The translations under genes and the position numbers were made by a program. From the sequence record DRR723986_21860: a stretch of 64,000 nt of DNA. One strand, 5' to 3'. The notes beneath the pieces are model-generated. The model was not told the origin of the DNA. It ran no database searches and saw nothing but the letters and a program-made list of their open reading frames with translations. Of the stretch, positions 7,981 through 47,000 are shown one piece after another (the stretch's first letter is position 1; every line of letters begins with the position of its first letter).

Positions 7981-7986
7981 TATTTC

Positions 7987-22597: not shown

Positions 22598-22598
22598 T

Positions 22599-24344
22599 TT
22601 AGTAGTTTTTAGGATTTCTAATTTCATTTTTCACCTCTCCGCAACCCATCATTTTTTCACCATAATAGGGGTTCCTAATCTCATTTTCTTTGCTTAACCA
22701 ATAACCACCTTCTTTACTGTTGGCCATTGGACAATACATTTCATAAGATTGGCCTCCAATGCCAAAAGATTTAGTTACAGCAATCATTGATTTTGACAGC
22801 TTACCGAAAGCCTTGCGCTGCTCTGTAATCAAGTTTGAGCTCTGAATTAATGTTGCCTGGTGTTCAATTTCTTCTGATTTTTTCATCCAAAAAATATGGG
22901 CTTCACCTTTTACCTTTTTCATATCAACTTTGCTTAGCTTAATGGTTAATTCTTCTGCTGCGCTACTTGCTGATTTGGAATCAGAGTTTACAAGACTTTC
23001 TTTTACTTGGATATATTCGCTGAATACAAGCTCTAATTGATTCTTGAAAGCATCAGAAGCATCCAAAACGAAATCAGGAGTGCTTTCAATAGTCTTTGTT
23101 TGATCTTGAGATGATAATTGATTCATCATACTTGCTTGGTTGTTCAACTGAGCGGATGCATCAATAACAAATGCCCCTTGTGTTACAACTTGTTCACCTG
23201 ATTTTAAGCCTGATTTTATAATGTAGTTGTCGCCTATAGATGTTCCAAGAACCACTTCTCTATATTCAAATGACGGGATTTCGGTGTTTTCTAATTGTAC
23301 ATAAACAACTGATCTTGTTCCTGTCCACATAACTGATGATTTAGGAATTGTTAATCCTGAAGAAGCGTTTGTATTAGATGAAAGATAACCCCTTACAAAC
23401 ATCTCTGGTTTCAGACTAGTGGTAGAATTTGAAATCTCTGCTCTAATCTTTGCGGTTCTTGTTTGAGAATTAATGGAAGGATCTATAAAGACAATTTTAG
23501 ATTCGTAATTAATTCCTGGATTAGACGTGGTTGAAAATGAGATGACGTCTCCGATATTCACGGTTGAAATGTCTTTTTCATATACATCAAATACAACCCA
23601 TAGATCCTTTAAGTTTTGAATATCAAATAGCACATCACCTTTACTAATATAATCGCCAACTGAAACTTTCTTTTTTTGAACAACTCCTGAGTATGCTGCG
23701 TAAATATTAAAGGTTTCTATTACCTCTTTAGCTGATAAAATTTCTTCAATTTGGTTATCGGTGATTTTCCAAAACTTTAATTTGTTTTTAGCTGCTTCAA
23801 ATAATTGCGGTTGACTTGCCTTGATTTTTTGAGCTTCAAGCAATTCTTTTTGAGCGGTGATTAGAAGTGGCGAATAAATGGAAGCAATTTTCTGACCTTT
23901 TGCAACCTGCTCTCCAGTGAAACTAATATATAGCTTTTCAATACGACCAGGAATGTGAGATACAATACTGGCTGCATTCGTTTCATTGACTTCTATTTTA
24001 CCTGCTACTTCTAAATCGGATTTTTCCGAATTTTTAGAACCGACAGTTGTGGTTTGGATTTGAGAGATTTTTACAGCCTCTTCAGACATTTCTAAAACAA
24101 AAGGATTATTGCTAGAATTTTCATCCAAGGGTATCAAGTCCATTCCACAAATAGGGCAAGCCCCAGGCTCATTTGATCTAATTTGTGGGTGCATTGAGCA
24201 GGTCCATATTTCATTATTACTTTCTTCGGAGCCGTGTAAATGTTCAGAATCAGCTGTTTTTGCAGAAGAATCTGCACCAAAAATTAGCCATCCTAAAAAG
24301 ACCCCGATAATCAGTGTTCCTACACTTATTAAATATTTATTCAT
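22599..24344 (-). CDS. cusB: CusB-like RND periplasmic adaptor with N-terminal heavy-metal-binding domain and C-terminal DUF3347
   Basis: WTCSMHPQIR...CPICGMDL, GRIEKL...YSP.L..AQ.EL, LKPEMF; C-terminal YCPMA...WLS...IRNPYYG..M..CG. Confidence 0.88.
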   Translation of the reverse strand: MNKYLISVGTLIIGVFLGWLIFGADSSAKTADSEHLHGSEESNNEIWTCSMHPQIRSNEPGACPICGMDLIPLDENSSNNPFVLEMSEEAVKISQIQTTTVGSKNSEKSDLEVAGKIEVNETNAASIVSHIPGRIEKLYISFTGEQVAKGQKIASIYSPLLITAQKELLEAQKIKASQPQLFEAAKNKLKFWKITDNQIEEILSAKEVIETFNIYAAYSGVVQKKKVSVGDYISKGDVLFDIQNLKDLWVVFDVYEKDISTVNIGDVISFSTTSNPGINYESKIVFIDPSINSQTRTAKIRAEISNSTTSLKPEMFVRGYLSSNTNASSGLTIPKSSVMWTGTRSVVYVQLENTEIPSFEYREVVLGTSIGDNYIIKSGLKSGEQVVTQGAFVIDASAQLNNQASMMNQLSSQDQTKTIESTPDFVLDASDAFKNQLELVFSEYIQVKESLVNSDSKSASSAAEELTIKLSKVDMKKVKGEAHIFWMKKSEEIEHQATLIQSSNLITEQRKAFGKLSKSMIAVTKSFGIGGQSYEMYCPMANSKEGGYWLSKENEIRNPYYGEKMMGCGEVKNEIRNPKNY

Positions 24345-24351
24345 ATCTCTA

Positions 24352-26829
24352 TTATTTTATAGTTTGTGCTCGTAGCCTTAAAGCATTCGCAATGACTGAA
24401 ACTGAACTGAAACTCATAGCCAATGCAGCAATCATTGGTGATAAAAGCAAACCAAAAACAGGAAACAAAACACCTGCGGCTATTGGAATTCCGATTGTGT
24501 TATAGGCCAAGGCGAAAAATAAATTCTGTTTGATATTCTTCATTACTTTGTGACTTAAAACCTTTGCTTTTACAATGCCATGTAAATCACCTTTTACCAA
24601 TGTGACATCTGAGCTTTCAATGGCTACATCAGTACCTGTTCCCATAGCAATTCCAACATCTGATAAAGCCAAAGCTGGGGCATCATTGATACCATCTCCC
24701 GCCATAGCTACAATGAATCCTTTTTCTTGTAACTCTTTAACCTTGTTTAGTTTATCTTCAGGCAAACAGTCAGCTACGAATTCATCTAATTCAACTTCTT
24801 TTGCCACAGCTTTGGCTGTATAGGCATTGTCTCCTGTCATCATGATAACCTGAATTCCTTTAGACTTCAATTCTTTTATTGCTTTTTGACTTGACTTTTT
24901 AATGGCATCAGAAATAACCAGATATCCAACCAACTTCTTACCAACTGCGATCAATGGAACGGTTTTACCTTTTTGCTGTTCAGTTTTTGATTGATCAAGA
25001 ATCTCACCTTTAAGTTGAATACCATGTTCGCTCATTAATTTTTCGTTGCCAACCAAAACAATTTTGTCGTCAATAATAGCTTTAACCCCCATCCCCGTGA
25101 CAGAATCAAAATCATTAATTTCTTTTAGTTCTATGTTTTTACTTTTAGCAAAAGAGACTGTCGCTTCAGCTAAAGGATGTTCACTTTGACTGTTCACTGA
25201 AGCCACTAACTGTGTTAGTTGATCAATGGAATATTCTGAGGTTGAAACTACTTTTTGAACAGAAGGCTTTCCTTCAGTAATAGTGCCCGTTTTATCTATG
25301 ATTAAGACATTTACTTTGTTTAATTTTTCAAGAGACTCAGCACTTTTAATTAAGACACCTTCTTGGGCTCCTTTTCCAACGCCAACCATCACTGACATAG
25401 GGGTAGCCAAACCTAAAGCACATGGGCAAGCAATTATCAAAACCGCAATTGCGTTGACAAAAGCATATACTAATGTTGGTTCTGGTCCAAGAAATTTCCA
25501 AAGTATGAATGTAATTATGGAGATCACAATAACAATCGGGACAAAATAGCCAGAAATTTTGTCAGCTAAATTTTGAATTGGTGCCTTACTTCTACTTGCA
25601 TTATTCACCATGTGTATGATTTGAGATAGTAAAGTGTCAGCTCCAACTTTCTCTGCTTCCATAACAAAAGACTGCTTTCCATTAATTGTACCTGATGTGA
25701 CCTTATCATTTTTTTCTTTATCAACTGGAACTGGTTCACCAGTGATCATTGATTCGTCAATCGAACTTTTTCCCTCTCTAATTACACCATCAACAGGAAT
25801 TTTATCACCAGGCTTAACCCTTAGTAGATCACCAATTTTAATATCATCTATACTTATTTCCTCTTCTTCATCTTCGTTAATGCGGATCGCCTTATTTGGA
25901 GCAAGTTTTAACAGTTCTTTCACCGCATTATTTGTTTTGCTATGGGCTTTAGCTTCTAAAAGTTGCCCCAAAAGAACTAAGGTCAAGATTACTGTGGCTG
26001 CTTCAAAATAAACATGAACAGTTCCGAAATTAGTTTTAAAATCATCTGGGAAAAGATTTGGAAAAATCAAACCAAATAAACTAAATAACCAAGCCACACC
26101 TGCACCTATTCCGATAAGCGTGAACATGTTAAGATTCATTGTTCTTATTGAAGTATAGGCGCGTTTAAAAAACATCCATGTAGCATAAAAAACAACAGGT
26201 ATAGAGAACCCAAACTGAAGCCAATTCCAATATTTGATATGCATCAATTGATATAAAGGATTGTCTTTTATCATTTCTGACATGGCAATGAAGAAAATTG
26301 GAAGAGTGAAGCTTGCAGCGATTATGAACTTCTTCAGCAATTTTTTATAGGTTTTTTGCTCCGCAGTTTCATTTGATTCTTTTGGTACCAAATCCATTCC
26401 ACATTTTGGACAGGATCCAGGTGAATCTTTCAGCACATCTGGATGCATAGGGCAGGTGTACATTTCTTGATTGGCTGCAATAGACACTTCGGCTACTAAA
26501 TCCATTCCGCAAACAGGACAATCTCCTGACTCATTATACGTTTTATCTCCTTCACAATGCATGGGACAGTAGTAAGTACCTTTAATTCCTTTTTCGTTTT
26601 TTTTACGAGTTTTAATTTCCTCATCCATTGAGTGAATCATATACTTTGATCCGAGAAATGGTTTTTTTAATTTTTCTAAAGGAATATGTTTAGACATTTC
26701 AAGTTCAGCTTCATTGTTTTCTAAATCAACTTGAACCTGTTCTATAAACTCAATGGATTCTAATGTTTCTTTAACGTGACTTTTGCAGCCATTGCACGTC
26801 ATTCCTGATATTTTATATGTATGTTTCAT
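24352..26829 (-). CDS. copA: Cu(I)-translocating P1B-1 ATPase
   Basis: HMA GMTCNGC, two YxCPMH...CPxCGM modules, TGE, CPC, DKTGT, HP, GDGIND, YN and MxxSS TM ligands. Confidence 0.94.
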   Translation of the reverse strand: MKHTYKISGMTCNGCKSHVKETLESIEFIEQVQVDLENNEAELEMSKHIPLEKLKKPFLGSKYMIHSMDEEIKTRKKNEKGIKGTYYCPMHCEGDKTYNESGDCPVCGMDLVAEVSIAANQEMYTCPMHPDVLKDSPGSCPKCGMDLVPKESNETAEQKTYKKLLKKFIIAASFTLPIFFIAMSEMIKDNPLYQLMHIKYWNWLQFGFSIPVVFYATWMFFKRAYTSIRTMNLNMFTLIGIGAGVAWLFSLFGLIFPNLFPDDFKTNFGTVHVYFEAATVILTLVLLGQLLEAKAHSKTNNAVKELLKLAPNKAIRINEDEEEEISIDDIKIGDLLRVKPGDKIPVDGVIREGKSSIDESMITGEPVPVDKEKNDKVTSGTINGKQSFVMEAEKVGADTLLSQIIHMVNNASRSKAPIQNLADKISGYFVPIVIVISIITFILWKFLGPEPTLVYAFVNAIAVLIIACPCALGLATPMSVMVGVGKGAQEGVLIKSAESLEKLNKVNVLIIDKTGTITEGKPSVQKVVSTSEYSIDQLTQLVASVNSQSEHPLAEATVSFAKSKNIELKEINDFDSVTGMGVKAIIDDKIVLVGNEKLMSEHGIQLKGEILDQSKTEQQKGKTVPLIAVGKKLVGYLVISDAIKKSSQKAIKELKSKGIQVIMMTGDNAYTAKAVAKEVELDEFVADCLPEDKLNKVKELQEKGFIVAMAGDGINDAPALALSDVGIAMGTGTDVAIESSDVTLVKGDLHGIVKAKVLSHKVMKNIKQNLFFALAYNTIGIPIAAGVLFPVFGLLLSPMIAALAMSFSSVSVIANALRLRAQTIK

Positions 26830-26886
26830 TGTGTTTTTTTTGTCAAAATTCGTTTATCACAGTATTTATTTCGTGCACTTCTTTGT

Positions 26887-27450
26887 TTAAATCATGTCTA
26901 ATTTTTGTCTATTTAATTTTGAAATGAATTGTGTGGGTGTTTGACCAGAAGCTTTTTTAAATTGTCTGGCAAAATGCTGAGGGGAACTGAAATCAAGTTC
27001 CTGGCTTACTTCAGAGATATTTAATTCACCGTAGGATAATAACTCCTTGGCTTTTTCTATTTTGTGTCTTAAAATGAATTGACTAATGGTTTGTCCTTGA
27101 TGTTTAGAGAAAACCTTACTCAAATAAGAATAGTTGAGGTTAAATTTTTGGGCTATAATTTGAGCGAATGTCAGCTCGTTATTTATGACACCAGAATAAT
27201 GAATTAAATCAACGATTTCAGACTTAATTGAATTCACTAGCTGGCTAGTTTTATCTATGATTAATTCAAAACCATTTGTGTGAAGAGATTCCTCAATCAA
27301 CTTCAATTTTTCAGATGATAATCTACCTTCAAAAATGACCATTCCTAATTTTACTTTCACCAGCTTAATTCCGTGTCTTTGCATAATCGATTCAACAGAT
27401 AAAATACATCTGTCACAAACCATGTTTTTGATGTGCAATTGATTTTCCAT
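26887..27450 (-). CDS. AraC-family regulator with an N-terminal metal-binding (HMA-like) domain
   Basis: IKNMVCDRC N-terminus; YSYLSKVF...KAKELL...FSSPQHFARQFKK..G.TPTQF HTH. Confidence 0.9.
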   Translation of the reverse strand: MENQLHIKNMVCDRCILSVESIMQRHGIKLVKVKLGMVIFEGRLSSEKLKLIEESLHTNGFELIIDKTSQLVNSIKSEIVDLIHYSGVINNELTFAQIIAQKFNLNYSYLSKVFSKHQGQTISQFILRHKIEKAKELLSYGELNISEVSQELDFSSPQHFARQFKKASGQTPTQFISKLNRQKLDMI

Positions 27451-27452
27451 AA

Positions 27453-28685
27453 TTAATACGCCGTTAACTTTTCAATTTTAGCAAACACTAGTTTTGATTG
27501 CAGTTGAGCATTTTCTATTTTGATTTCATTTTGAAGTAAATCATTATATAATTCAAGAATCTCGTCAAACCCAGAACCAGAACCAGAGTAATTTGAAAGC
27601 AGCACTTCAACGGCAAGTTTTGTGGTCTCATTTTGCTTCTTATAAAATGTTATTTGACTTAAGAATTTATCATAATCCGTTTTAAGGTTTAATAGTTGGC
27701 GCATTATTTCATCTTCTAAAGCGGTTTTTTGAAACCCTATGCCTTCTTGAATCAAAGTTTCTTCTGTCTGAATGGATTTGTTCTTTTTTTGATATAATGG
27801 AATTGTGAGCATAACTTTAGGGATTAAAATATCTCTTCCATTATAGGTAGGGTTCGCATCTAATCGTTCTCCTACCAAGCTATAGTCTATACCTATACCT
27901 AACATAGGAGAATTCATTTTTTGACTCAATAATTGTCTATTAGAAGAAGCTTCGATTTGATGGGTTAATTGCGCCATTTTTGGGTGCTTACTAAGGTTGC
28001 TTCTAAATTTGGTAGTGTCAAATTCTACAATCTCTAAATCGTCCTTTTCACCACTAGGGATAATCATGTTTTGGAGCGGCGCTTTAATTAATTGATTTAT
28101 AATTACAGAAAGTTGTTGGTTTTGAAAATTGATTTCAGCGATTTCTTGATCGATTTTTTGTTTTCTTAATTGTACACGATATACATTTGCGGTAGTGCCA
28201 TTTCCACTCTCAACTTTTGAAAGGGCTATTTGTTCTAATGATTCATATAGCTCTTTGTTTTCCTTTAATAATTCAGTTTTTTGAAAGTTAAAAACCAGAC
28301 GATAATAGGCTTCTTTTAATTGATAAACTAGATCTAATTTCAACAAAGCGACTTCATAATATTTCGCTTCAGACATTTGGATCATAACCGCCTCCCTAGT
28401 TTTAAAAGTTCCAAACCAAGGAAATATCTGTGTTGCGCTCACCATAGTAATTTGTGGCCCTAATCTTGTTTCCGGTCTCAAGACTGGGACTCCTACACCA
28501 ATTGTAGGATTTGACAGTTGACTTTCTTGTTGAATTCGCTCTTTTGCCGCTAAAAACTGATTATTGACAGCCTTTAACTCTGAATTATTTGCGACTAATT
28601 TTTCAAGAAGATCGGACAATTTTTGACTGTATAGCTGGGTAGAACTAAAAAGTGCCAGAAAGAGAATTAATAATCTATTTTTCAT
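27453..28685 (-). CDS. TolC/CusC-family outer membrane efflux protein
   Basis: Signal peptide, ETRLGPQ...Q.FPWFG motif, long amphipathic helices, overlaps cusA. Confidence 0.88.
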   Translation of the reverse strand: MKNRLLILFLALFSSTQLYSQKLSDLLEKLVANNSELKAVNNQFLAAKERIQQESQLSNPTIGVGVPVLRPETRLGPQITMVSATQIFPWFGTFKTREAVMIQMSEAKYYEVALLKLDLVYQLKEAYYRLVFNFQKTELLKENKELYESLEQIALSKVESGNGTTANVYRVQLRKQKIDQEIAEINFQNQQLSVIINQLIKAPLQNMIIPSGEKDDLEIVEFDTTKFRSNLSKHPKMAQLTHQIEASSNRQLLSQKMNSPMLGIGIDYSLVGERLDANPTYNGRDILIPKVMLTIPLYQKKNKSIQTEETLIQEGIGFQKTALEDEIMRQLLNLKTDYDKFLSQITFYKKQNETTKLAVEVLLSNYSGSGSGFDEILELYNDLLQNEIKIENAQLQSKLVFAKIEKLTAY

Positions 28686-31600
28686 CTGAAGTGTTTTTAA
28701 TTTTATTAAGTCTTAAGCTCCATTCTTTCCATATACAATAGAGTACAGGTACTGTAAACATTGTTATTACATTCAACACCATCCCGCCGAATGAAGGAAT
28801 TGCCATTGGTAGCATGATATCTGCTCCCTTACCAGTGGAAGTCAAAACAGGGAGCAGAGCCAAAATTGTGGTTGCCGTAGTCATCATTGCTGGCTTAACC
28901 CTTCGTAATCCTCCCTCAACCACAGCATCTCTTATGCCTGCTATGGTGTTTGGTTTATTTGTTTTGAAACTGTCTTTCAGAAATGTTCCGACTAAAACAC
29001 CATCATCTGTAGCAATGCCAAAAAGTGCTAAGAAACCTACCCAAACTGCCACACTTAAATTGATGGTACCTATTTGAAACAAGTCTCGCATGTTTGTACC
29101 GAAAACATCAAAATTCATGAACCAATCCTGACCGTAAAGCCAAATCATGATAAATCCTCCAGAGAATGCAACAAAAACACCTGAAAAGACGAACAAGGAA
29201 GTCATTATCGATTTAAAGTGAAAATAGAGTATCAAAAGGATAAGAACTAAGGCAATAGGAACCACTAAGCTAAGTCTTTCATTGGCTCTAATTTGTTGCT
29301 CATAGTTTCCAGCAAATCTGTAAGTTATACCTTTCGGGACAACTAATTCTCCGGAGTCAATTTTTTGGTTGATTAGCTTTTGAGCATTCTGAACTACTTC
29401 AACTTCAGCGTATTCATCCATTTTGTCAAACAATACAAAACCAATTAAAAAACCATCTTCACTTTTTATTGCTTGAGGTCCTTGCTCATATTTTACTTCA
29501 ACTAAATCACCGAGAGGAACTTCAACACCTGACGGAGTGCTAATTAGAATGTTTTTAATCTTATCTGGGTTATCTCTTAGTTCTCTTGGGTAACGAATTC
29601 TAATATTATATCTTTCTCTTCCTTCAACCGTTGTAGTCATTATCATCCCGCCTATAGCGGTTTGAATCTGATTTTGGACGTTAATTATTGAAAGACCATG
29701 TTTAGCAATTTCCTCCCTTTTTATATCTAACATCAGATAAGGTTTGCCCACAATTCGATCGGCAAAAACTGCCTCTATTTTAACTCCTTCAACTTGTTTC
29801 AAGTATTTTTCAATCTCTTTACCAAATGACTCAATGGTCTTCAAGTCTGTGCCTTGAATTTTAACGCCCATGGGCGCACGCATACCGGTTTGAAGCATAA
29901 CTAAACGCGTTTCAATTGGTTGAAGCTTTGGTGCTGAAGTTAGTCCTGGTAAATTGGTTGCTTTAACTATTTCATTCCAGATATCATCAGGAGATTGTAT
30001 ATGATCTCTCCATTGTCGGTAGTATTTTCCATTTTCGTTCGGAATTAGATTGCCAGTTGAGTCTTTCTCATATTCACCATCATTATTTACTTGATACCTG
30101 ATTCGCCTTCCATCTTCATCAGTCTTGTACTCAGATTTATAAATGATGATGTTTTCATACATTGACATTGGAGCAGGATCTAATGAACTTTCTACACGTC
30201 CTGCTTTACCGACTACCATTTCAACTTCTGGAATGGCAGTGACAGACATATCCAGTAATCTCAGATTAGATTCATTCATCTCCATACCCGTATGTGGCAT
30301 AGAGGTGGGCATTAAAAGGAAAGAACCTTCGTTCAAGCTTGGCATAAATTCCTGTCCTGTACGACTAAAAATTTGATATCCTGCAAAAAGTAAGAGAAGG
30401 ATTAGTCCTACAAAAACATACTTAATTCGGATCAAAAAGCGCAGAATTTGTTCGTAGTAATGAATGACTACGTAAAAGGTGCTAATTAATAGTCCTATGA
30501 TCAGAGCGACAAAAACGAAATTGGTAAAGTTTGATTTGTTGACTCCTAAAGGCATCCAAATTGTCGCCAATAACCAAGCAACTATAGTAGCATAAAGGAT
30601 ATTTTTGAAATACTCAAAACGCTTAAGCCATAGTTCAGATTTCGTCTCATTAAATTGAAGGGATAAAATTCCTGTAATACCAACTGTTAATCCAAATATC
30701 CCGAAGAAAGAATAATCAGTGAACAATAAAATAACGGATAGAATTGAAAGAATGCCGTTTGTGAAATAAGGTACTGTTTTATCTTTGCTTTTTAATTTGA
30801 ATATCTGTTCAGCCAGTGCAGGCAAAATCATAATTGCCAACATTATGGCAGCAAGAAGGGCAAACGATTTTGTAAATGCCAATGGTCTAAATAGTTTTCC
30901 TTCGGCAGCTTCCATTGTAAATACTGGAAGGAAACTTACAACTGTTGTAGCTACTGCAGTAACTATAGCGGAAGCAACTTCTGTAGTCGCTAAATAAACT
31001 GAAGTTTTTATTGACTGGGTGCTTGGAGCCTCTTTAATTTTAAGAACCATGCTTTCAGTCATGACAATACCCATATCTACCATTGTCCCCACGGCAATTG
31101 CTATCCCAGATAAGGCAACTATATTGGCGTCTACGCCAAAATATCGCATAGCAATGAAGCACATTAATACTGCAACAGGTAAAGTTGCGGAAATAAGGAG
31201 TGAAGACTTCAAATGAAGGAGCATTAACAGGACAACAATAATTGTAATTAAAATTTCCAGACTAAGCGCTTCCTCCAATGTGCCTATCGTTTCCTTTATC
31301 AACTCACTTCTATCATAAAATGGGACAACTGTAAGTTGTGATACAGTGCCGTCAGCCAAAGTTTTAGTAGGCATTCCACTTGAAAGCTGTAAAACCTTTT
31401 CCTTTACATTATTTATTACTTCTATAGGATTTGCACCATACCTTGCAACCACAACACCTCCTGCCACTGATGCTCCAGACTTATCTAGGATTCCTCTTCT
31501 CGTTGCGGGTCCAAGATGTACCGTTGCAATATCTTTAATTCTAATAGGAACATTATCTACCATCTTAACGACACTGCTTTCTATGTCTGTAATAGATTTT

Positions 31601-32361
31601 ACATAGCCTAGACCTCTAACAAAATATTCAGCCTTATTTATTTCAACAGTTTGCGCGCCAACGTCTAAATTACTTTGCTTTGTAGCAGACATCACTTGCT
31701 CCAGAGAAACGTCATAAACTCTCATTTTATCTGGATCTACATCTACCTGATATTCTTGAACGAAGCCACCAATTGAGGCAACTTCAGAAACCCCTTCTGC
31801 CGATTGAATGGCATATTTTACATAAAAATCTTGAGCGCTTCTAATTTCGTTTAAATCCCAACCCCCGGTGGCGTTTCCATCTTTATCTCTACCTTCTAAG
31901 GTATACCAATAAATCTGACCTAATGCTGTTGCATCTGGTCCTAAAGCTGGTTGTACACCATCAGGTAAAAGACCGGAAGGAAGTGAGTTAAGTTTTTCTA
32001 ATATTCTACTTCTGCTCCAATAGAATTCAACGTCTTCTTCGAATATCAAATAGATACTTGAGAATCCGAACATTGAATTACTACGAACACTTTTAACTCC
32101 TGGAACACCTAGCAATGCAGAAGTCAATGGGTAAGTAATTTGATCTTCTACATCTTGTGGTGAACGTCCCATCCATTTGGTGAAGACAATTTGTTGGTTT
32201 TCGCCAATATCGGGTATAGCATCAACGGCTACTGGGTCACGAGGTAATCCACTTTCTACGTCAAAAGGAGAAGTAACTAAGCCCCATCCTATAAACAATA
32301 AGAGTAAAAGCCAAGCAACAAGTTTATTATCAAGAAAGAATTTTATTATACGATTTAACAT
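28675..32361 (-). CDS. cusA: CusA/SilA-family heavy-metal efflux RND permease
   Basis: VDAIPDIGENQQIVFT, LGPDATALGQ, GIAIAVGTMVD; Met triad equivalents LLMP, PMSM and RLVML; R.KPAMMT. Confidence 0.92.
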   Translation of the reverse strand: MLNRIIKFFLDNKLVAWLLLLLFIGWGLVTSPFDVESGLPRDPVAVDAIPDIGENQQIVFTKWMGRSPQDVEDQITYPLTSALLGVPGVKSVRSNSMFGFSSIYLIFEEDVEFYWSRSRILEKLNSLPSGLLPDGVQPALGPDATALGQIYWYTLEGRDKDGNATGGWDLNEIRSAQDFYVKYAIQSAEGVSEVASIGGFVQEYQVDVDPDKMRVYDVSLEQVMSATKQSNLDVGAQTVEINKAEYFVRGLGYVKSITDIESSVVKMVDNVPIRIKDIATVHLGPATRRGILDKSGASVAGGVVVARYGANPIEVINNVKEKVLQLSSGMPTKTLADGTVSQLTVVPFYDRSELIKETIGTLEEALSLEILITIIVVLLMLLHLKSSLLISATLPVAVLMCFIAMRYFGVDANIVALSGIAIAVGTMVDMGIVMTESMVLKIKEAPSTQSIKTSVYLATTEVASAIVTAVATTVVSFLPVFTMEAAEGKLFRPLAFTKSFALLAAIMLAIMILPALAEQIFKLKSKDKTVPYFTNGILSILSVILLFTDYSFFGIFGLTVGITGILSLQFNETKSELWLKRFEYFKNILYATIVAWLLATIWMPLGVNKSNFTNFVFVALIIGLLISTFYVVIHYYEQILRFLIRIKYVFVGLILLLLFAGYQIFSRTGQEFMPSLNEGSFLLMPTSMPHTGMEMNESNLRLLDMSVTAIPEVEMVVGKAGRVESSLDPAPMSMYENIIIYKSEYKTDEDGRRIRYQVNNDGEYEKDSTGNLIPNENGKYYRQWRDHIQSPDDIWNEIVKATNLPGLTSAPKLQPIETRLVMLQTGMRAPMGVKIQGTDLKTIESFGKEIEKYLKQVEGVKIEAVFADRIVGKPYLMLDIKREEIAKHGLSIINVQNQIQTAIGGMIMTTTVEGRERYNIRIRYPRELRDNPDKIKNILISTPSGVEVPLGDLVEVKYEQGPQAIKSEDGFLIGFVLFDKMDEYAEVEVVQNAQKLINQKIDSGELVVPKGITYRFAGNYEQQIRANERLSLVVPIALVLILLILYFHFKSIMTSLFVFSGVFVAFSGGFIMIWLYGQDWFMNFDVFGTNMRDLFQIGTINLSVAVWVGFLALFGIATDDGVLVGTFLKDSFKTNKPNTIAGIRDAVVEGGLRRVKPAMMTTATTILALLPVLTSTGKGADIMLPMAIPSFGGMVLNVITMFTVPVLYCIWKEWSLRLNKIKNTSDEK

Positions 32362-32436
32362 TGATTATTATTGAATTGAAACAATAGAAAATTGGTCCAT
32401 CCCAAGAGGAACAGACGATTCAAAACAATAATTAAA

Positions 32437-32904
32437 TCAAATTAAAAAAGTTTGATACAGGACAGAAAAGTCTTGCCTTATCAGAGGAGGGTTGTAGTTT
32501 GAATAAGAAGGAGAGTGTTCTGCATCTACGAAAAAAGAATAATCGCATAAAATACACGCAACCATTACCAGCTGAACATCATGCGAAGAGATATCTAGTT
32601 TTTGTTCTTCAATTTCCTGATTAGCTTCGAAATTAAAGGTTTCATTGTAACAACAAATAGATTTTAAATCTCCATTTTCATGATGCGTGTTCTCAATTAA
32701 ATTTTTTAATTCCTTCAGCTTTTTTTGATGACATGGAGGAAGGTTTTCATCAATACCCCCCATGTCGCATGCTTCAGCTTCTCCAAAAAGGTTAATGCTT
32801 TTGGCTTCACCTTTACAAAAGTGCACATCAACGCTAAATCCAAGTGACGAAAAAAGTATCACTGGAATTAATAATATGGCTCCTATTTTTCTTAAAGCTT
32901 TCAC
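32437..32904 (-). CDS. HYC_CC_PP family protein
   Basis: VDVHFCKG, ICC and NPPL...YQTFLI motifs; first gene of the metal-efflux cluster; GTG start. Confidence 0.8.
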   Translation of the reverse strand: MKALRKIGAILLIPVILFSSLGFSVDVHFCKGEAKSINLFGEAEACDMGGIDENLPPCHQKKLKELKNLIENTHHENGDLKSICCYNETFNFEANQEIEEQKLDISSHDVQLVMVACILCDYSFFVDAEHSPSYSNYNPPLIRQDFSVLYQTFLI

Positions 32905-34521: not shown

Positions 34522-35463
34522 TTAAAACTCGTGTTTGATAACTTGAAGTACCTCATAGGTATCAACATCAAACACATAGATTAGCAAATGATAATCTTCA
34601 TTTGTCATTCCGTCAGGAAGTTGATAAGAATAATCTAATCTACTTTTCGTTCCAGCGGTGTAATCAACCGATAATGTTCTTCCCCACGCTAAACCGTCAA
34701 TACATCCTCTAAATATATTGTGATGTTTGTACTTTGATACTTTAACTCCTGAGCTATCTTGGTAGTCTTTTACTTCGTTTTCCATCAAATTCACAACCAT
34801 GTTATATTGTGAGCCATTTAAGTCCTCAAGAAACTCAACTTCGGTATGTAAATAAAACCCATTCGTTTCTGTGTAATAATTACTTTTAGCTTGGATGTTA
34901 ACTTTCAAATCGTTATCGGCAAGTATTCCATCAACTCTTGTTTGCCAATTTGATACGGTTGTAAACATATCATTTCCCGTAAAGTTAATGCGGTTAATAT
35001 TTCCCTGCGGATTAGCAAAAAAGCCTACATCAGCTCCCCCAAAAGTTGCGCCATATTCTTCACCCTCATCACAATAAAAAACCGTGCAAAATTGATCATT
35101 TGGGTTACTGGCTTCACCACAATCAGATGCTAATGTTTGAAAACTAGACAATCCGGTTGGAGCAGCATGAACAGATGAAACGAAGACACGAGAAGGATTA
35201 GCTTGTTCAATATAATATGCTTGCCAATTGGCATTTGGGCAAGCTGGACATCTGTGCCCTGTATAATCTTCTAACATGATATTTCTTTCAGTATTGGTGT
35301 TTTCATCAAAGCTTGGAAACACATAATCCGCCCAATTGCCAGGATAAAGAGTGGTATCAACAGTAATTTCAGGTTTGATAGGGTTGGATACCTTATCACA
35401 TGAAGTGTTGAATTGACTCATTAAGATTAAAAACGTGAAAATAAACAGTGTATTCTTTTTCAT
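34522..35463 (-). CDS. Omp28-related outer membrane lipoprotein (thioredoxin-like CxxC plus Ig-like domain)
   Basis: Lipobox TSC-D, LEDYTGHRCPACP, P.G.INR, YKHHNIFR, YEVLQV. Confidence 0.85.
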   Translation of the reverse strand: MKKNTLFIFTFLILMSQFNTSCDKVSNPIKPEITVDTTLYPGNWADYVFPSFDENTNTERNIMLEDYTGHRCPACPNANWQAYYIEQANPSRVFVSSVHAAPTGLSSFQTLASDCGEASNPNDQFCTVFYCDEGEEYGATFGGADVGFFANPQGNINRINFTGNDMFTTVSNWQTRVDGILADNDLKVNIQAKSNYYTETNGFYLHTEVEFLEDLNGSQYNMVVNLMENEVKDYQDSSGVKVSKYKHHNIFRGCIDGLAWGRTLSVDYTAGTKSRLDYSYQLPDGMTNEDYHLLIYVFDVDTYEVLQVIKHEF

Positions 35464-35473
35464 AATCTAAGTT

Positions 35474-37126
35474 TTAAAAGCTTGATGTAAACGTAACAGT
35501 TAACCCATTTGTTGCAGGCACAGGTCTACATACACCGCCAATACAGAAAATCCCTTCTCGTTGTCTTCCATAGGATACCATGATTCTACTTGCCCCGAGT
35601 ATGTAACCAGTAGATACCAAAGGATAACTAATTCTTTGGTTAGCAACTGGATTTCCGTAATTGTATTGATACATTGCAGCAAAAAAGAAACTTGGAGAAA
35701 TATTATACTCTAAAAGCGCAGTTGCCCAGTTTCCTTTATCTTGTTTTGTCCAAAGACCTTGTAATTCGAGACGAAGAGAATGTTTTCTGTTGATTTTGTA
35801 TTGCACATCTACCACGGCAATGTCAGCATAAATAATTCCCGTTGCATCTTTAGTAACCACGTTTACAGCATTATTAAATTCAAAATGGAAATACTTCAAG
35901 CCAATTTTCCATTTTTTGTTCAACTTTCGTTTTATTTCAATGTTGAAGTCTTTGTAATAAAGGCTATCACTTTTTTCAAATAATCCCGTTTTATAAGTCA
36001 CACGTGTTGAGTCACCTGGTAAATTATAGCCAGTAGTGTGTCTCACCGGTCTGTAAGCAACGGCAAAATTCACACTAATATCGGTTCCGTATTTACCTCC
36101 TAATTTCGTTTTTTTCGGAATTTTATAGAATAAATCGGCCTGATAAGCAACTTCACCAACGGGTTGCGTTGCATAAGGGTACAAGGTGGCGGCTAAGTTA
36201 TACGTGTGTGTTTTTGTGAGCGCTGGCATAAAGTTTACTTGTAAATCTGTTAGAATTGCATCAGGATCGACTCTATAACTCATATTATCAATTGATTTCG
36301 CTTGAAGGATAACACCAAATCCTTTCATAGAATAACCTGCATTAATGAATGTTCCGTGTCCATTATTATAGATATATCCATTGTCAAAAGACGGGTCATT
36401 TTCTTTTATTATATGCTCACCGCCCAAGAAAAACTTCCCATATTTCATATCTATACGTCCACCATATGAACCTACGTTTTTAGGCATGTTATAATCGGGA
36501 TGATTTGCATTTTGGAATTTAGATACAAAACTACCTCCAATGGTCATTTTGAATTTTGATGAATCTAAAAGACCCAGAAAAGAACCGAAGTCAATTTCTC
36601 CATCAAATCCCCTCACTAAACCATCTGAGTTTTCAACTCGGTTATTAAAAGCATAACGCATTTTACCGTAAACGGCTTTAAGTGTTAAACCTGGAGTAGG
36701 TGTTAACTTCACTTGCAGTCCATCCATTGCATTGTCAATTCCTAGCTGACGTTGTTCGTAAGACCTGAAAATCATTCCAGACCCAAACTGATCATAGAAA
36801 TTACCAGCTGTAAACTCAATTTTTTCGTGTGAATAACCCACATATCTGTAACCCAATCCAGTTCCTGAATATCTATCGGGATATCCTAAAATGTGTGGTA
36901 AATATGATTCTATTCGAACTCCACCCCTAAATCCTTTGTTGCTGTAATTCACCAAAGCGTATGAATTTAGAACAGTTTTTTCAGCTGGTTGAACTGCCCC
37001 AATTAAGGTATCTTCATTGAGGTATTGAAAGGTCGTTTCAATATTACCAGAAACATTTGGCCCAAGTTGTTGAGTAAAACCTAAAGTACTACTCAATAAC
37101 AATAAGGGAAGAATTAATTTCTTCAT
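35474..37126 (-). CDS. DUF6029-family predicted outer membrane beta-barrel
   Basis: Signal peptide, TAGNFYDQFGSGMIFRSYE.RQLGIDNA.DG motif, alternating beta-strand pattern, C-terminal GIFCIGGVCR and terminal Phe. Confidence 0.8.
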   Translation of the reverse strand: MKKLILPLLLLSSTLGFTQQLGPNVSGNIETTFQYLNEDTLIGAVQPAEKTVLNSYALVNYSNKGFRGGVRIESYLPHILGYPDRYSGTGLGYRYVGYSHEKIEFTAGNFYDQFGSGMIFRSYEQRQLGIDNAMDGLQVKLTPTPGLTLKAVYGKMRYAFNNRVENSDGLVRGFDGEIDFGSFLGLLDSSKFKMTIGGSFVSKFQNANHPDYNMPKNVGSYGGRIDMKYGKFFLGGEHIIKENDPSFDNGYIYNNGHGTFINAGYSMKGFGVILQAKSIDNMSYRVDPDAILTDLQVNFMPALTKTHTYNLAATLYPYATQPVGEVAYQADLFYKIPKKTKLGGKYGTDISVNFAVAYRPVRHTTGYNLPGDSTRVTYKTGLFEKSDSLYYKDFNIEIKRKLNKKWKIGLKYFHFEFNNAVNVVTKDATGIIYADIAVVDVQYKINRKHSLRLELQGLWTKQDKGNWATALLEYNISPSFFFAAMYQYNYGNPVANQRISYPLVSTGYILGASRIMVSYGRQREGIFCIGGVCRPVPATNGLTVTFTSSF

Positions 37127-37164
37127 TTAGACTAATTAAATTGGATTTTGGGGTAAAAGGGTGA

Positions 37165-37680
37165 TTATTTTCCTGAAACTTCTAAAATATGATCGTACAA
37201 TTCTTGTTCATCTCCAGGTACATAATTGTTATGTGAATAAACAATCGTGCCTTCACCATCCAATAAAAAGGTGTGAGGTACAAAGTTAACTCCTAAAGCT
37301 CTTTTGAAGTCTCCATTAACATCCATCCAAATGTCATATTCCCAACCCGTAGCATTCACGTATGGCTCAACCATTTTTGTTGTCTTTTGATCATCAACAG
37401 AAACAGCTACTAATTTTACACCAGTCTCTTCTTGCCAATCTTCGTATTCCTCTGCAATTGTATTCAGTTCTTGTTTACACGGTTTGCACCAAGTTGCCCA
37501 AAACGAAAGTACAATCGGGTTACCATCATTAGAAACTTCAGCTGTATTGATAGCATTTCCTGCCATATCTTTAATGTTTACTGAAGGTAATTTTTTTCCT
37601 TTTTTATCATCATCTCCATTTGAAGTGAATGACAAAATTGCTAATGCGGCTATAGGAGCTAGTAAAAATATTTTTTTCAT
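37165..37680 (-). CDS. TlpA/ResA-family thiol-disulfide oxidoreductase
   Basis: Signal/anchor, SFWATWCKPCKQEL, cis-Pro motif VPHTFLLD. Confidence 0.92.
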   Translation of the reverse strand: MKKIFLLAPIAALAILSFTSNGDDDKKGKKLPSVNIKDMAGNAINTAEVSNDGNPIVLSFWATWCKPCKQELNTIAEEYEDWQEETGVKLVAVSVDDQKTTKMVEPYVNATGWEYDIWMDVNGDFKRALGVNFVPHTFLLDGEGTIVYSHNNYVPGDEQELYDHILEVSGK

Positions 37681-37865: not shown

Positions 37866-37899
37866 AAAAAAACCCGTTGCAAATAAATGCAACGGGTTT
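37866..37899 (-). terminator. Rho-independent terminator downstream of the T9SS thioredoxin-like gene
   Basis: Perfect stem AAACCCGTTGCA-AATAAA-TGCAACGGGTTT with an A7 tract (U tract on the minus strand). Confidence 0.88.
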
Positions 37900-37918: not shown

Positions 37919-39451
37919 TTACTTAGCAACAGTAACTCTTTTAGTCATAATGTTTCCATTAACGTTAATGTTCATTAAGTACATTCCACCTTCTAAATCA
38001 GCAGTTGCAACTTCAACATTTTGGAATCCGTTAACTTCACCTAAATTGTTTGTGTAAACAATTTGTCCTAAAGCGTTATACATTTCAATTGTTACAACAG
38101 AAACTTCACTTAAGTTTAATTGAACATTTGTCATGTCAACAGCAGGGTTAGGGAATAATTCGATTGAAGTTACTGCAATAGCTTCTTCAACTCCTGTAAA
38201 TCCACCGTCACCAGCTTCCGTTACTTCGAATGCAAATGTTCCCATTGATCCGTAGTTAGTTGCGAATGTATTCGTAGTACCATCATCAGAGATTAATTTA
38301 AGGCTTGATCCTGATAACATTCCATCACCATAATCATCAAACATGATGAAGTGGTAGCATCCAGTAGCTAAACCTGGTACGTATACGTGCTGAGTTGAAC
38401 CATTAGCAGTCCAAGTTCCAATTGAAACGAAATCAATTAATCCAGTATAAGAACCACCATTTGCAGCACTGTACGCAGCAGAAGCGTCAGTTAAATACGG
38501 GTTTCCAGAAGCAACTGCAACACCTACTTCAGATGCGTAGTTGTCTAATTTTACTTCGATATCTAAATCTCCAGCTCCAGCGTCAACTGCTTGAACAACG
38601 TTGATAGGTGCAGAAATATCATCATTAGTTAAATCGTCATTCGCAGTTGTAATAGTAACTAATACGTTATTCATTCCTAAAGCTAAATTTACAGAACCAA
38701 CATTTACTTCAGTTGCAGCATAAGGCTGTAAGTTTAAAGTAGCGTTAGTTGTAGCAATTGGTGAGCCACCTAATGAAGCTTCAATAGTATAAGTTCCGTT
38801 AATTGCAGAAGTTGAATAGTTTTGAACCGCAACTTTAATATCAGTTGTAGCAGTTCCACCACCACATAAAGTGATGTCAGAAACAGAAGTGTTGTCAATG
38901 ATTCTTGGATCATTTGTGTTTGATGCAGTTGAGCCACAAGCATTAACAGCAGACACCCATCCAGCTGCAGAAGCCTGTCCTACCTCAGTTACAGTTCTAT
39001 CCGGACATATAAGTAATAAAGTCGGGTAATAAGCTAGATTCATTAGAGACGCAACACCATCATCATTACAAACTGGATAATCTGTTCCCGTAACCCAGTC
39101 CCCTATTGAATTTCCACCACCGTCTAATGTGTTCTCCGGTGTTGAAGGGTCTGCATCAACTGCTATTATAAATACCTCATCTGTTCCACCGGCTCCTATA
39201 TTATTATAAACATCTTCTAGAGTACCAGCTTGATGATAATTCCAACAAGGACCGCACCAAACGGCGAACAAGTCCAAAATTACTGGTTTTCCTGAATCAA
39301 GGATTGCATCAATATCGTAAGTTGTTCCACCAGGGTAATCAGTTAATGTTAATCCACCAGGATAAACACCATAATCAGGCAATTGCGCATTTGCAGAACC
39401 AGCAACGGTCATTAAAGCAGCAACTCCTAAAGATTGTAAAATTTTCTTCAT
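37919..39451 (-). CDS. T9SS type A cargo with an N-terminal thioredoxin-like domain (WCGPC)
   Basis: Signal ANA-Q, LDLFAVWCGPCW, YYPT, CARDB-like middle, DNYASE...DDYGDG module, LFPNP...KRVTVAK CTD. Confidence 0.85.
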   Translation of the reverse strand: MKKILQSLGVAALMTVAGSANAQLPDYGVYPGGLTLTDYPGGTTYDIDAILDSGKPVILDLFAVWCGPCWNYHQAGTLEDVYNNIGAGGTDEVFIIAVDADPSTPENTLDGGGNSIGDWVTGTDYPVCNDDGVASLMNLAYYPTLLLICPDRTVTEVGQASAAGWVSAVNACGSTASNTNDPRIIDNTSVSDITLCGGGTATTDIKVAVQNYSTSAINGTYTIEASLGGSPIATTNATLNLQPYAATEVNVGSVNLALGMNNVLVTITTANDDLTNDDISAPINVVQAVDAGAGDLDIEVKLDNYASEVGVAVASGNPYLTDASAAYSAANGGSYTGLIDFVSIGTWTANGSTQHVYVPGLATGCYHFIMFDDYGDGMLSGSSLKLISDDGTTNTFATNYGSMGTFAFEVTEAGDGGFTGVEEAIAVTSIELFPNPAVDMTNVQLNLSEVSVVTIEMYNALGQIVYTNNLGEVNGFQNVEVATADLEGGMYLMNINVNGNIMTKRVTVAK

Positions 39452-39638: not shown

Positions 39639-40370
39639 ATGAAACAATTATACGCAGTAGCAGCAATATTTTTCTCTGGTTTTGCATATGGACAAAACTT
39701 TGTGGTCCACGATTATAATACAGGGCAGCCATTGGCGCAACCAATTGTCTTGACTGTGGATAGTGCTTCGACAGTTGAGTACGCTGATTCCAAATTTCAC
39801 ATTGTTAATGTTACTGGAGGAGATTTAGATTGCTCTTGGTCCAGGGAACGAAAAGCTCATGATGCTTCAATTGTGGAAGATCAGATATGTGATGATGAAT
39901 TATGTTTCACTGCAAATGATCAAACGTTATATTCGAGACCTTCGACTGGATTTTCGATCGCGGCAGGGGACAGTACATTTTTTCAGCCAAAGGTTTATCC
40001 TGGTGACGTTCCAGCTTGTGTGATTTATACGTACTATATCTATTCGGGGTTAGGCTCGTTGCAAGATTCTATCGAAATTAAATTTAGATTCGATTCTCAA
40101 GATTGTTTCTTGAGTGCAGAAGAGCAAGAGATTGACTTTTCAACTTATCCAAACCCTGCTTCAACTGACTTTAATATTCAATTAACTACAAACGGTGCAA
40201 GTGTTGATTTATTGGTTTATAACATTCTTGGAGAAACGGTAATGACTGAGCAGTTATTTGACGGATTAAATAACGTGAATATTGAGGGGTTAACGAATGG
40301 AGTTTATTTCTATTCAATTAGAAAAAATGGTAAAGCCATTGAAACGAAAAAACTAATTGTAAGAAAATAA
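39639..40370 (+). CDS. T9SS type A sorting domain protein (Ig-like domain with QICDDELC)
   Basis: Signal YG-Q; TYPNPA...YNILG...GVYFY...KKLIVRK CTD. Confidence 0.85.
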   Translation: MKQLYAVAAIFFSGFAYGQNFVVHDYNTGQPLAQPIVLTVDSASTVEYADSKFHIVNVTGGDLDCSWSRERKAHDASIVEDQICDDELCFTANDQTLYSRPSTGFSIAAGDSTFFQPKVYPGDVPACVIYTYYIYSGLGSLQDSIEIKFRFDSQDCFLSAEEQEIDFSTYPNPASTDFNIQLTTNGASVDLLVYNILGETVMTEQLFDGLNNVNIEGLTNGVYFYSIRKNGKAIETKKLIVRK

Positions 40371-44091: not shown

Positions 44092-47000
44092 GTGAATAAA
44101 GGTCTACTCATAACACTAACGCTTATTTGGGTGAATTGTTCGTTTGGACAAACCGACACTTCTAAGCTAAAATATCCCATCAAGGATTATTATGATTATA
44201 CCCAAAAAACAGATCCGCGTATCGGATTACAAGACCCTTCAAATTTAAATACAACTGTAGTTTATAATCCTGAAACTGGATTGTATGAAATCTATCAAAT
44301 GATAGGCGGTGTGCAATACAGATATCCAACGGCAATGACTCTAGAAGAGTACATGGCCTATAAAAGAGAACAAGCTCTAAAAAACGGATTTCAGGAAAAA
44401 ATCGAACAAGCCAACGACCAAGAACACGGTAAAAATCTAATACCAGGTTTAAGTGTTAAGAACGAAGCTTTTGATGTAATTTTTGGTGGTGACGAAATCA
44501 ACATTCGTCCGCAAGGTTCTGCTGAATTATCATTTGGGGTGAACATTTCTAAGTATGACAATCCGGTTCTACCAATCAAACAAAGAAGGGTAACAACCTT
44601 TGATTTTCAACAACGAATTAACCTAAACTTAGTGGGTCAAATTGGAGATAAATTAAAGTTGACTATTGCACAAAATACAGAGGCGACCTTTAATTTCCAG
44701 AACAACGTTAAAATTGAATACACTGGATACGAAGATGAGATTATCCAAAAAATTGAAGCAGGGAATGTTAGTTTACCATTAAACACAACTTTAATTCAAG
44801 GGTCTCAAAGTTTGTTCGGTATACGGTCAGATCTAAGATGGGGACGCTTCACCACTAATTTGATTCTAGCACAGGAAAAAGGTAAAAGACAAGAAATTAA
44901 CGTTTCAGGAGGAGCACAAGTTCAAGAGTTTGAAGTAAAAGCAGATAACTATGAGGCCAACAAGCACTACTTCTTAAATTATTATCATAGAGAGCATTAT
45001 GATGAGGCAATGCAAACCATGCCTTTGGTACAGTCTGATGTACAAATCACAAAAATAGAAGTTTGGGTAACCAACAGAATTAACAAAGTCGAGAACACGA
45101 GAAACGTATTGGCATTTACCGATTTAGGTGAAGAGTCTCCTGTGAATTATGAAGGAGCACCAACTGCAGTAATGGGAAGTACCGTACCTGACAATGATGC
45201 CAACTCGCTCTATTCAGATTTATCTGCCGCCCCTCAAGTGCGAGAGTTTTCAAATGCTGTACCATTTTTATCAGCTCTTGGACCAACGCAGTCTGGACCT
45301 TTCAATCAGGCAACTCACTATGAAAAAGTTGAGAACGCAAGACAACTTTCAGAACAAGAGTTCACTTACAATGCACAATTGGGGTATATTTCATTGAAAT
45401 CTCCTTTGAATCAAGATGAGGTATTGGGTGTAGCTTATCAATATACGTTTGGAGGTAAAACTTATCAAGTAGGTGAATTCTCAAATGATGTACCAGTTGA
45501 AGAGGGTTCAAAAAGTGCATTAATCTTAAAACTATTAAAGCCAACTATTGTTAATCCGGCCAACAAAACTTGGGATTTGATGATGAAAAACGTTTACTCA
45601 ATTGGTGCATACCAAGTGAGCCAAACTGATTTTATCGTTGATCTTTATTACAATAATCCAAGAACATCTGTTGACATCAATTATCTGCCTTATGATGGTG
45701 TAAATAATAAATTGTTGATGCAAACCATGGATCTGGATCGTCTGAACATCCAAAATAATTTACAGCCAGATGGTCGATTTGATTATGTTCCAATTCAATA
45801 CATGGGGAACAAAGCAACTAACGGAGGAACAATTGACCCAAAAACGGGACGTGTTTTCTTTACCACCATTGAGCCGTTTGGTAAAACTTTAAAAGATAAA
45901 TTGGAAGCTTCGGGACAACTTTCTAATCTAGAAGTTAATGGTATTGTGTATCAAGAGTTATATGATTCAACTAAAACTGCGGCTCAACAAATCCCCAATA
46001 AAAATAGATTTAAACTGAAAGGTGAATATAAATCATCCGTTAGTTCTGACATTTCTTTGAATTCTTTGAACGTTCCTGAAGGTTCAGTAACGGTGACTGC
46101 TGGTGGTGTGAAACTTACCGAGGGAACAGATTATACCGTAGATTACAACTTAGGTAGGGTGAAGATATTAAACCAAGGAATTCTTGAATCTGGCACACCA
46201 ATCAAAGTACAGTTAGAAAGTAATTCGTTATTTGGATTCCAGCAAAAGTCATTAGTAGGAGCGCATTTTAATTATGAATTCAATAAAGATTTTAATTGGG
46301 GTGCTACGGTGATGAATTTGACAGAAAAACCATTGACTCAAAAGGTAAATGTTGGAGATGAACCCATAAGTAATACTGTTGTAGGCACAGACATATCATA
46401 TCGTAGAGACGTTCCGTTTTTAACCAAATTGGTGGATTTATTACCGATTATTTCAACGAAAGAAAAATCAAGCATCAATGCTTATGGTGAATTTGCATAC
46501 TTAATACCAGGCACTCAACGAGCAATTTCAAAAGAGGGAATATCTTATATTGATGGTTTTGAGGGCTCACAATCGGCAATTGATATCAAAAACTTCTCAG
46601 CTTGGAAATTAGCTTCTGTACCTCAAGGTCAGCCAGCCATGTTCCCTGAAGCACACACCAATTTATCTAGCCTAAGTTCTGGATACAACAGAGCAAAACT
46701 AGCCTGGTACGTGGTGGATCCAACAACCTTTTATCAAAATTCAACAGTAACTCCTGAACATTTGCAGAATAACAATGACGTATTGTGTGATTCAAGATGG
46801 CACATCTTAAGTCAAACCGCATTATTCCCGCAACAACAACCTGTAACGGGTACCCTAAATAATATTCCAGTTCTAGATTTGGCATACTATCCATCTGAAA
46901 GAGGTCAGTATAATTATGATACCACTGAGACGTTTATTGATGCTGATGGTAAGTTCACCAATCCAAGTGACCGTTGGGCTGGAGTAATGCGATCTTTGAC

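Follow-up and report, generated by a model that had tools for sequence, protein, structure and literature searches.

A window of 64,000 nucleotides, the whole stretch of DNA analysed from sequence record DRR723986_21860, contains three closely spaced genes on its minus strand, which encode a TlpA/ResA-like protein, a protein of the family DUF6029 predicted to be an outer-membrane beta-barrel, and an Omp28-type lipoprotein (Table 1). The gene boundaries were taken from the list of open reading frames (ORFs), and the intergenic gaps are 38 bp (tlpA/barrel) and 10 bp (barrel/omp28). An earlier note on this DNA, made from the letters alone, had described three tight, co-oriented genes with the cysteine motifs WCKPC, CIGGVC and CPAC, and every detail of that description that could be checked was correct; the minus-strand translation agreed exactly with its placement of the only two cysteines of the barrel at CIGGVC. 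The trio proved to be a conserved and widespread operon of the Bacteroidota. That it encodes a thiol-disulfide redox module at the outer membrane is the reading that we favour, at about even odds. The names borne by the closest homologs put the source of the DNA in or near the Crocinitomicaceae (order Flavobacteriales). No description of the tlpA-DUF6029-omp28 cassette was found in the literature searched (on DUF6029; on Omp28 with thioredoxin, TlpA or PG2174; and on reducing equivalents, the outer membrane and secretion by the type IX system, T9SS).

Table 1. Trio genes, their cysteine motifs and adjoining features; positions are those of the window.
Feature	Position	Strand	Basis
TlpA/ResA-like thioredoxin-fold protein (predicted), 171 aa	37165..37680	-	ORF; AhpC-TSA/Redoxin matches
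WCKPC active-site codons of TlpA, residues 64-68	37477..37491	-	Translation
DUF6029 protein, predicted outer-membrane beta-barrel, 550 aa, ~24 strands, C-terminal Phe	35474..37126	-	PF19494; AlphaFold2 model
Codons C528-I-G-G-V-C533 of the barrel, predicted hairpin of last loop L12	35528..35545	-	Translation; AlphaFold2 model
Omp28-type lipoprotein, 313 aa: lipobox Cys22, predicted thioredoxin-like domain and C-terminal beta-sandwich	34522..35463	-	PF11551
Codons C72-P-A-C75 of Omp28, followed by P76 (family motif CxxCP)	35239..35250	-	Translation
Terminator-like hairpin and T-run, 3' of the upstream T9SS thioredoxin gene	37870..37899	-	Sequence; hairpin scan
T9SS-sorted protein, 510 aa, N-terminal classical thioredoxin motif WCGPC	37919..39451	-	Por_Secre_tail, 43.9 bits
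Small T9SS-sorted protein, 243 aa, divergent from the trio	39639..40370	+	Por_Secre_tail, 53.5 bits

A genome scan with one genome per species returned at least 600 loci with a DUF6029 relative, and the best 80 were fetched with their flanks. ORFs were called in these loci (given L numbers below) and then searched with the window proteins. The 80 loci span Flavobacteriales families, Saprospiraceae, Sphingobacteriaceae, Bacteroidales and one bin labelled Chlorobi. Of the 76 loci having an upstream flank, 73 had a TlpA ortholog directly upstream of the barrel gene in the same orientation (71 by script; L036 and L042, in which the start of the barrel ORF was over-extended, were added by eye). An Omp28 ortholog lay directly downstream in 72 of the 75 loci having a downstream flank (70 by script; L040, in which masked bases interrupt the barrel, was added, as was L070 by eye). 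Departures from this order included a 311-residue ORF inserted between the TlpA and barrel positions (L038), T9SS thioredoxin genes between the barrel and Omp28 (L039 and L065) and a locus without Omp28 (L059). The median gaps across the loci were 24.5 bp between TlpA and the barrel and 11.5 bp between the barrel and Omp28. These counts rule out chance adjacency of the three genes and identify a conserved operon; the co-occurrence of the barrel with TlpA and Omp28, to which the earlier note had pointed, held in nearly all of the 80 loci.

The neighbourhood also bears on a function proposed for this family. DUF6029 proteins have been the subject of speculation as polysaccharide-export porins on the basis of an HHpred likeness to Wzi-type barrels, and among the Wzi-barrel-like proteins whose genes lie near OPX genes are some that resemble DUF6029 (PMC9603273; this and the other articles cited by PMC number were available in part, and statements drawn from them refer to those parts). 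Recurrent neighbours were identified by clustering all ORFs of the 80 loci, and none of the 20 largest shared clusters was recognisably an export gene, not every cluster being annotated. Since the constant neighbours of DUF6029 were instead TlpA and Omp28, the neighbourhood data do not support the polysaccharide-export idea, which we regard as extremely improbable.

The protein encoded by the first gene of the trio matched the Pfam families AhpC-TSA (78.1 bits, cut-off 26), Redoxin (66.4 bits, cut-off 26.6) and Thioredoxin_8 (46.6 bits, cut-off 27). Its best NCBIfam matches all fell below their cut-offs (ResA, 87.9 against 170; DsbE, 62.5 against 123.15; TlpA, 47.8 against 230), and the protein is therefore termed TlpA-like and not assigned to any of the named orthologs ResA, DsbE or rhizobial TlpA. 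C65 and C68, both within WCKPC, are its only cysteines. The motif WCxPC was kept in all 72 TlpA orthologs adjoining barrel genes, and W64, C65, P67 and C68 were invariant in the ortholog alignment (A3). The N-terminus is hydrophobic and contains no cysteine. With a signal peptide, as judged by eye, and no lipobox cysteine, the TlpA-like protein is predicted to be a secreted thioredoxin-fold protein that is soluble in the periplasm.

The second protein matched DUF6029 (PF19494) with 595.9 bits (cut-off 27), residues 1-550 aligning to positions 1-538 of the 538-position profile. DUF6029 was the sole Pfam family on this protein, and no plug or TonB-dependent-receptor family was matched in the Pfam scan. 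The AlphaFold2 model, built from an alignment of 136 sequences, had a mean predicted local distance difference test score (pLDDT) of 95.0, a predicted TM-score (pTM) of 0.90 and 24 long strands as assigned by DSSP, the first of which begins at residue 24. A Foldseek search of the model against the PDB gave 404 matches with E <= 0.001, and all among the matches listed were outer-membrane barrels; these were generic large barrels with a TMq of at most 0.47, none of them an informative relative. By phmmer, 0 matches to the PDB were obtained. Long fused forms of DUF6029 were also searched for, and none was found, which is weak evidence. The DUF6029 protein is predicted from this model to be an outer-membrane beta-barrel of about 24 strands.

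The barrel contains the two cysteines C528 and C533 only, and no CxxCH motif. All 120 close homologs carried the motif C-x4-C in their last 45 residues, as did 134 of 150 representatives of a library clustered at 50% identity, so that the conservation of C-x-G-G-x-C across DUF6029, a point on which the earlier note had hinged, is near-invariant. Among the 16 representatives without it, 14 were short (206-402 residues), one of 490 residues matched the query only to residue 360, and the remaining full-length sequence (P0248) reads SAGGIC, having lost the first cysteine. The motif was likewise found in 79 of 79 assessable loci, L026 being set aside because a contig end cuts the barrel. The consensus is C-x-G-G-[VIL]-C; in the 136-sequence alignment G531 and C533 were invariant, and C528, G530, R534 and P537 were at least 90% conserved.

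In the model, the two cysteines lie on a hairpin (residues 525-529/532-536) that is flanked by strands 513-522 and 539-549. Turns that are short, at 2-5 residues (64-65, 100-102, 142-146, 230-231, 268-269, 402-405, 445-448, 477-479 and 511-512) all follow even-numbered strands, and long, variable loops follow odd-numbered ones. Outer-membrane barrels usually have both termini and their short turns on the periplasmic side. Application of this rule to the DSSP string of the model, without coordinates, would place the C528/C533 hairpin in the last surface-side loop, L12, on the extracellular side and beside the seam of strands 1 and 24. Loop L12 and loop L3 (residues 111-133, motif Y.QFG.G) were tied as the most conserved segments of the barrel (0.73 each, against 0.38-0.60 for the strands), a pattern suggesting that the outer or lumenal side bears a functional site. 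The most conserved of the periplasmic turns was T7 (residues 337-347, approximately 36086-36118 on the minus strand; motif GG.YG, conservation 0.65), which could serve for docking at the periplasmic face.

The third protein matched Omp28 (PF11551) with 58.7 bits (cut-off 34.9) over residues 150-310. Because its match to the NCBIfam subfamily lipoprot_Omp28 (100.6 bits) was below the cut-off of 150, it is termed Omp28-related. Its cysteines are C22 of the lipobox, C72 and C75 of CPAC, and four further, non-conserved residues (115, 126, 131 and 254); no CxxCH motif is present. In an alignment of 71 orthologs (A2), C22, C72, C75, P76, H99, P152 and G261 were invariant, and CxxCP was present without exception in the 72 orthologs from the loci and in 120 further homologs. 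A regular expression for the lipobox was positive in 55 of the 72 orthologs; most of the 17 negative sequences showed, by eye, a hydrophobic stretch, a cysteine and then an aspartate, the exceptions being L042 and L049 in the stretch viewed. Tandem Omp28 paralogs, two in each case, were observed in L005, L011 and L033, and one homolog of 516 residues (P0271) is a fused Omp28 tandem in which CxxC is absent from the first copy and kept in the second.

Searched against the PDB, the Omp28 ortholog profile matched the C-terminal domain of Porphyromonas gingivalis Omp28 (2r2c, 1.2e-31) and P. gingivalis HBP35 (5y1a, 3.5e-9), the latter match extending over the CxxC and the C-terminal domain; weak matches to several thioredoxins (0.005-1) were also obtained. 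In addition, hhalign superimposed the CxxC region of Omp28 on that of TlpA with a probability of 72%. On the strength of these profile matches and this overlap, Omp28 is predicted to consist of a thioredoxin-like domain, containing CxxCP and the invariant histidine, and a beta-sandwich, and is homologous to HBP35, which accords with the electron-accepting role given to this CPAC lipoprotein in the earlier note. Selenocysteine variants mark redox-active sites, and the NCBIfam model 'Omp28-related selenoprotein', known here by its name alone, was matched weakly (1.1e-4).

HBP35 is located on the cell surface of P. gingivalis, reduces insulin in vitro in a cysteine-dependent manner and binds hemin (PMC2907840). 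Like the window Omp28, it carries a CxxC thioredoxin-like domain followed by a beta-sandwich, but it is anchored by a T9SS C-terminal domain, whereas the window protein is a lipoprotein. P. gingivalis Omp28 (2r2c, PF11551) has a homologous C-terminal domain and is, like the window protein, an outer-membrane lipoprotein; its solved chain comprises the C-terminal domain only.

The evidence for a redox module includes the shared inheritance of the three genes and the retention of its cysteine pair by each of the three proteins. In such a module, the barrel and Omp28 would form an outer-membrane pair, and Omp28 would serve as an oxidoreductase on or close to the cell surface, joined in many genomes by a T9SS-anchored WCGPC thioredoxin. 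The TlpA-like protein would be the periplasmic electron donor and would in turn be fed by an inner-membrane CcdA/DsbD, which is not encoded in the window. The cysteine pair of the barrel would be either a true electron relay or a structural or gating disulfide. The redox-module part of the interpretation given in the earlier note is supported here; the specific wiring through the barrel faces a topology problem, and the proposed link to copper is not conserved.

The strictest form of that wiring, in which electrons pass from TlpA to C528/C533 of the barrel and on to Omp28 so that the barrel itself is the outer-membrane conduit, appears rather doubtful. The N-terminal domain of DsbD, which carries a cysteine pair on a beta-hairpin as a redox relay, offers a precedent for it. 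All three cysteine pairs are inherited together and conserved, few parts of the barrel are as conserved as the hairpin loop, and a near-invariant arginine stands beside C533. A surface thioredoxin would moreover have to be supplied with electrons, and for HBP35 no supplier is known (PMC2907840). Opposed to these points is the predicted position of the hairpin in the last surface-side loop, about the thickness of the membrane from the periplasm, where the TlpA-like protein is expected; the conserved loops L3 and L7 may also fill the lumen. With the hairpin opposite the periplasm, one hand-over, either from TlpA to the barrel or from the barrel to Omp28, would have to cross the lumen whichever way Omp28 faces.

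Several observations weigh against the redox-module reading more generally. The cysteine hairpin is predicted to lie on the side opposite the periplasm, where TlpA could reach it through the lumen only, and a C-x4-C around a GG hairpin looks equally like a purely structural disulfide staple. Two loci, L035 and L041, kept the barrel and Omp28 and had a UbiA-family gene in the TlpA position. Bacteroidota surface lipoproteins with an export signal (LES) carry C-X-K-(D/E)2 or a series of acidic residues immediately behind the lipidated cysteine (PMC5080379), and the strict form of this signal, that of Capnocytophaga, was found in 1 of 71 Omp28 sequences, so that Omp28 is only putatively exposed on the surface. 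Finally, the loci studied were only the 80 best of the at least 600 that matched.

The residues after the lipidated cysteine of Omp28 nevertheless follow a pattern of their own, with D at +2 (67/71), I or V at +4 (69/71), D or E at +5 (56/71) and P at +7 (64/71), and this conserved stretch could serve as an export or docking signal specific to the family. A prediction of the complex between the barrel (residues 22-550) and Omp28 (residues 22-313) gave a score of 0.01 and a mark of 0.34; as it was folded from single sequences without alignments, this result speaks neither for nor against binding. The single-sequence AlphaFold2 model of Omp28 was unusable (mean pLDDT 35.6).

The staple is central to an explanation in terms of transport or binding, in which the barrel would be a channel and Omp28 its lid, in the manner of SusCD or of the hemin-binding HBP35, the barrel cysteines would be structural, and TlpA would be a periplasmic helper that maintains the thiol state of both proteins. 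Large barrels such as FhuA commonly have disulfides in their loops as structural elements, and a barrel gene with an adjacent lipoprotein gene is a common layout in the Bacteroidota. The invariant C72, C75 and H99 of Omp28 could bind a ligand, and HBP35 is needed under hemin limitation (PMC2907840). We consider this explanation unlikely, since no plug or TonB-dependent-receptor family was found on the barrel in the Pfam scan, the name 'Omp28-related selenoprotein' and the co-located WCGPC thioredoxin point to catalysis over binding, and a helper for folding alone seldom keeps such a neighbouring position, here held in 73 of 76 loci.

If the operon does encode a redox module, a broader conduit may be envisaged, in which TlpA, kept reduced through CcdA/DsbD at the expense of the cytoplasm, would pass reducing power through the barrel, by way of either the hairpin cysteines or a thioredoxin domain docked in the lumen, to Omp28 and the T9SS-anchored thioredoxins at the cell surface. 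A 24-strand barrel can be wide, and ushers of such size pass folded pilins. This conduit, which would be a cysteine counterpart of MtrCAB, is put forward tentatively and as less than probable. Known systems resemble it in part. DsbD/CcdA and its partners TlpA, ResA and CcmG share the logic of moving reducing power between cysteine pairs across a membrane, and the TlpA-like protein of the trio falls in the family of these partners. DsbD/CcdA, however, is helical and lies in the inner membrane, whereas the membrane part of the trio is an unrelated, predicted outer-membrane beta-barrel through which transfer is only proposed; no DsbD family was matched among the trio proteins in the Pfam and NCBIfam scans. 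MtrCAB (6r2q) is analogous in combining a donor in the periplasm with a large barrel and a lipoprotein at the surface, and MtrB was a generic fold match (TMq 0.38), but the Mtr system uses chains of haem, whereas the trio has no CxxCH motifs and the barrel has two cysteines. The ushers FimD and PapC and the TonB-dependent transporters have barrels of similar size (22-24 strands; the best TMq was 0.47, to PapC); the DUF6029 barrel differs from them in having no plug, no periplasmic domains and no sequence similarity.

The surface of Bacteroidota bears thioredoxin-fold proteins, of which HBP35 is the one that has been studied, and we know of no route that carries reducing power over the outer membrane for the recycling of such proteins. 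An operon matched at 600 or more places with three essentially invariant cysteine pairs is a concrete and testable candidate for such a route, and the conduit, if real, would explain the recycling of surface thioredoxins such as HBP35. Even if the relay fails, the operon gives DUF6029 and Omp28 their first functional context and defines a barrel-lipoprotein pair together with its conserved sites. A 2026 preprint describes HBP35-like T9SS thioredoxins and a thioredoxin lipoprotein in Muribaculaceae; neither the barrel nor TlpA is mentioned in the part of it that was seen (PMC13404670). In vesicles of P. gingivalis, Omp28, the DUF5723 protein Q7MT24 and the T9SS-tail protein Q7MT25 were among 36 proteins found with H2O2 only (PMC12937337). 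UniRef names some DUF6029 proteins 'DUF5723 domain-containing protein'.

Two T9SS-sorted proteins with cysteine pairs are encoded next to the trio (Table 1). The 510-residue protein scored below the cut-off for the Thioredoxin and Redoxin families, and its matches to thioredoxins in the PDB reached 2e-5. Relatives of at least 400 residues were present in 26 of the 80 loci, with WCGPC in 17 of 28 such ORFs. Homology of this protein to Omp28 beyond the thioredoxin motif is not claimed, as hhalign gave a probability of 4.9% and aligned the CxxC stretch alone. The small T9SS-sorted protein had relatives in 59 of the 80 loci, and its two cysteines, which bound a variable loop of 3 to approximately 13 residues, were invariant in 60 of 60 ORFs. 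Its nearest clusters in the ESM Atlas were E-set-like or C-terminal-domain proteins, which is a lead only; the ESM Atlas searches returned unnamed Bacteroidota clusters only. This small protein is a candidate for a partner of the redox module or for one of its substrates at the surface. Some support was obtained for the T9SS-cargo part of the earlier proposal, two T9SS proteins with cysteine pairs being encoded alongside the trio in many loci. A small barrel of the family OMP_b-brl_2 (approximately 209 residues), absent from the window, was observed downstream of Omp28 in 31 of the 80 loci (for example at 8592-9206 in L029 and 8526-9170 in L070). These three recurrent neighbours tie the trio more firmly to thiol chemistry at the surface and to cargo of the T9SS.

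A terminator-like hairpin with a 12-bp stem that includes 6 GC pairs lies between the upstream T9SS thioredoxin gene and the trio. It was entered in the scan on the plus strand, and its minus-strand reading is likewise a hairpin followed by a T-run. This strong hairpin would separate the thioredoxin gene from the trio and suggests that the trio is a transcription unit of its own. A scan for sigma-70 promoters was uninformative (25 sites observed, 25.8 expected).

The trio adjoins a copper island (16309-32904), which comprises a multicopper oxidase, a CopA-type ATPase with HMBD domains, CusB/CusA/OEP, an AraC regulator and HYC_CC_PP. The multicopper oxidase occupies two adjacent ORFs, of which the second bears a T9SS tail, and the island encodes two further T9SS-tail proteins. 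The oxidase domains are split over overlapping ORFs (16309-17163 and 17160-18323, plus strand), which could be due to a frameshift or a sequencing error or could be a genuine arrangement of two genes.

With this island beside it, the trio might be thought to hand over a soft metal or metalloid (Cu(I), Hg or Se) as a thiolate between its cysteine pairs across the envelope, in the manner of MerP/MerT or TlpA-Sco. The CxxC and invariant histidine of Omp28 also form a Sco-like layout, and the island includes CusCBA and HYC_CC_PP in addition to the oxidase and the ATPase. Copper genes were, however, not among the ORF clusters common to at least 6 of the 80 loci, and no metal-binding family was matched in the Pfam and NCBIfam scans, which leaves metal hand-over very unlikely. 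A copper link, such as the surface-copper role suggested in the earlier note, was accordingly rejected as a conserved feature: the island stands beside the trio in the window and not in the related loci.

Approximately 3.7 kb past the small T9SS-sorted protein, after genes for Sir2, malic enzyme and RuvA, the window encodes SprA, the T9SS translocon (2514 residues; 44092-51636, plus strand). A malic enzyme gene was found near the trio in 24 of the 80 loci, and the neighbourhood on the SprA side is therefore probably inherited gene order. At the other end of the window (785-13125, plus strand), an alternative complex III-like gene set (multihaem cytochrome, Fe-S subunit, NrfD, ActD and cytochrome c) precedes the genes for subunits II and I of cytochrome oxidase, and the gene content of this region indicates an aerobic respiratory chain.

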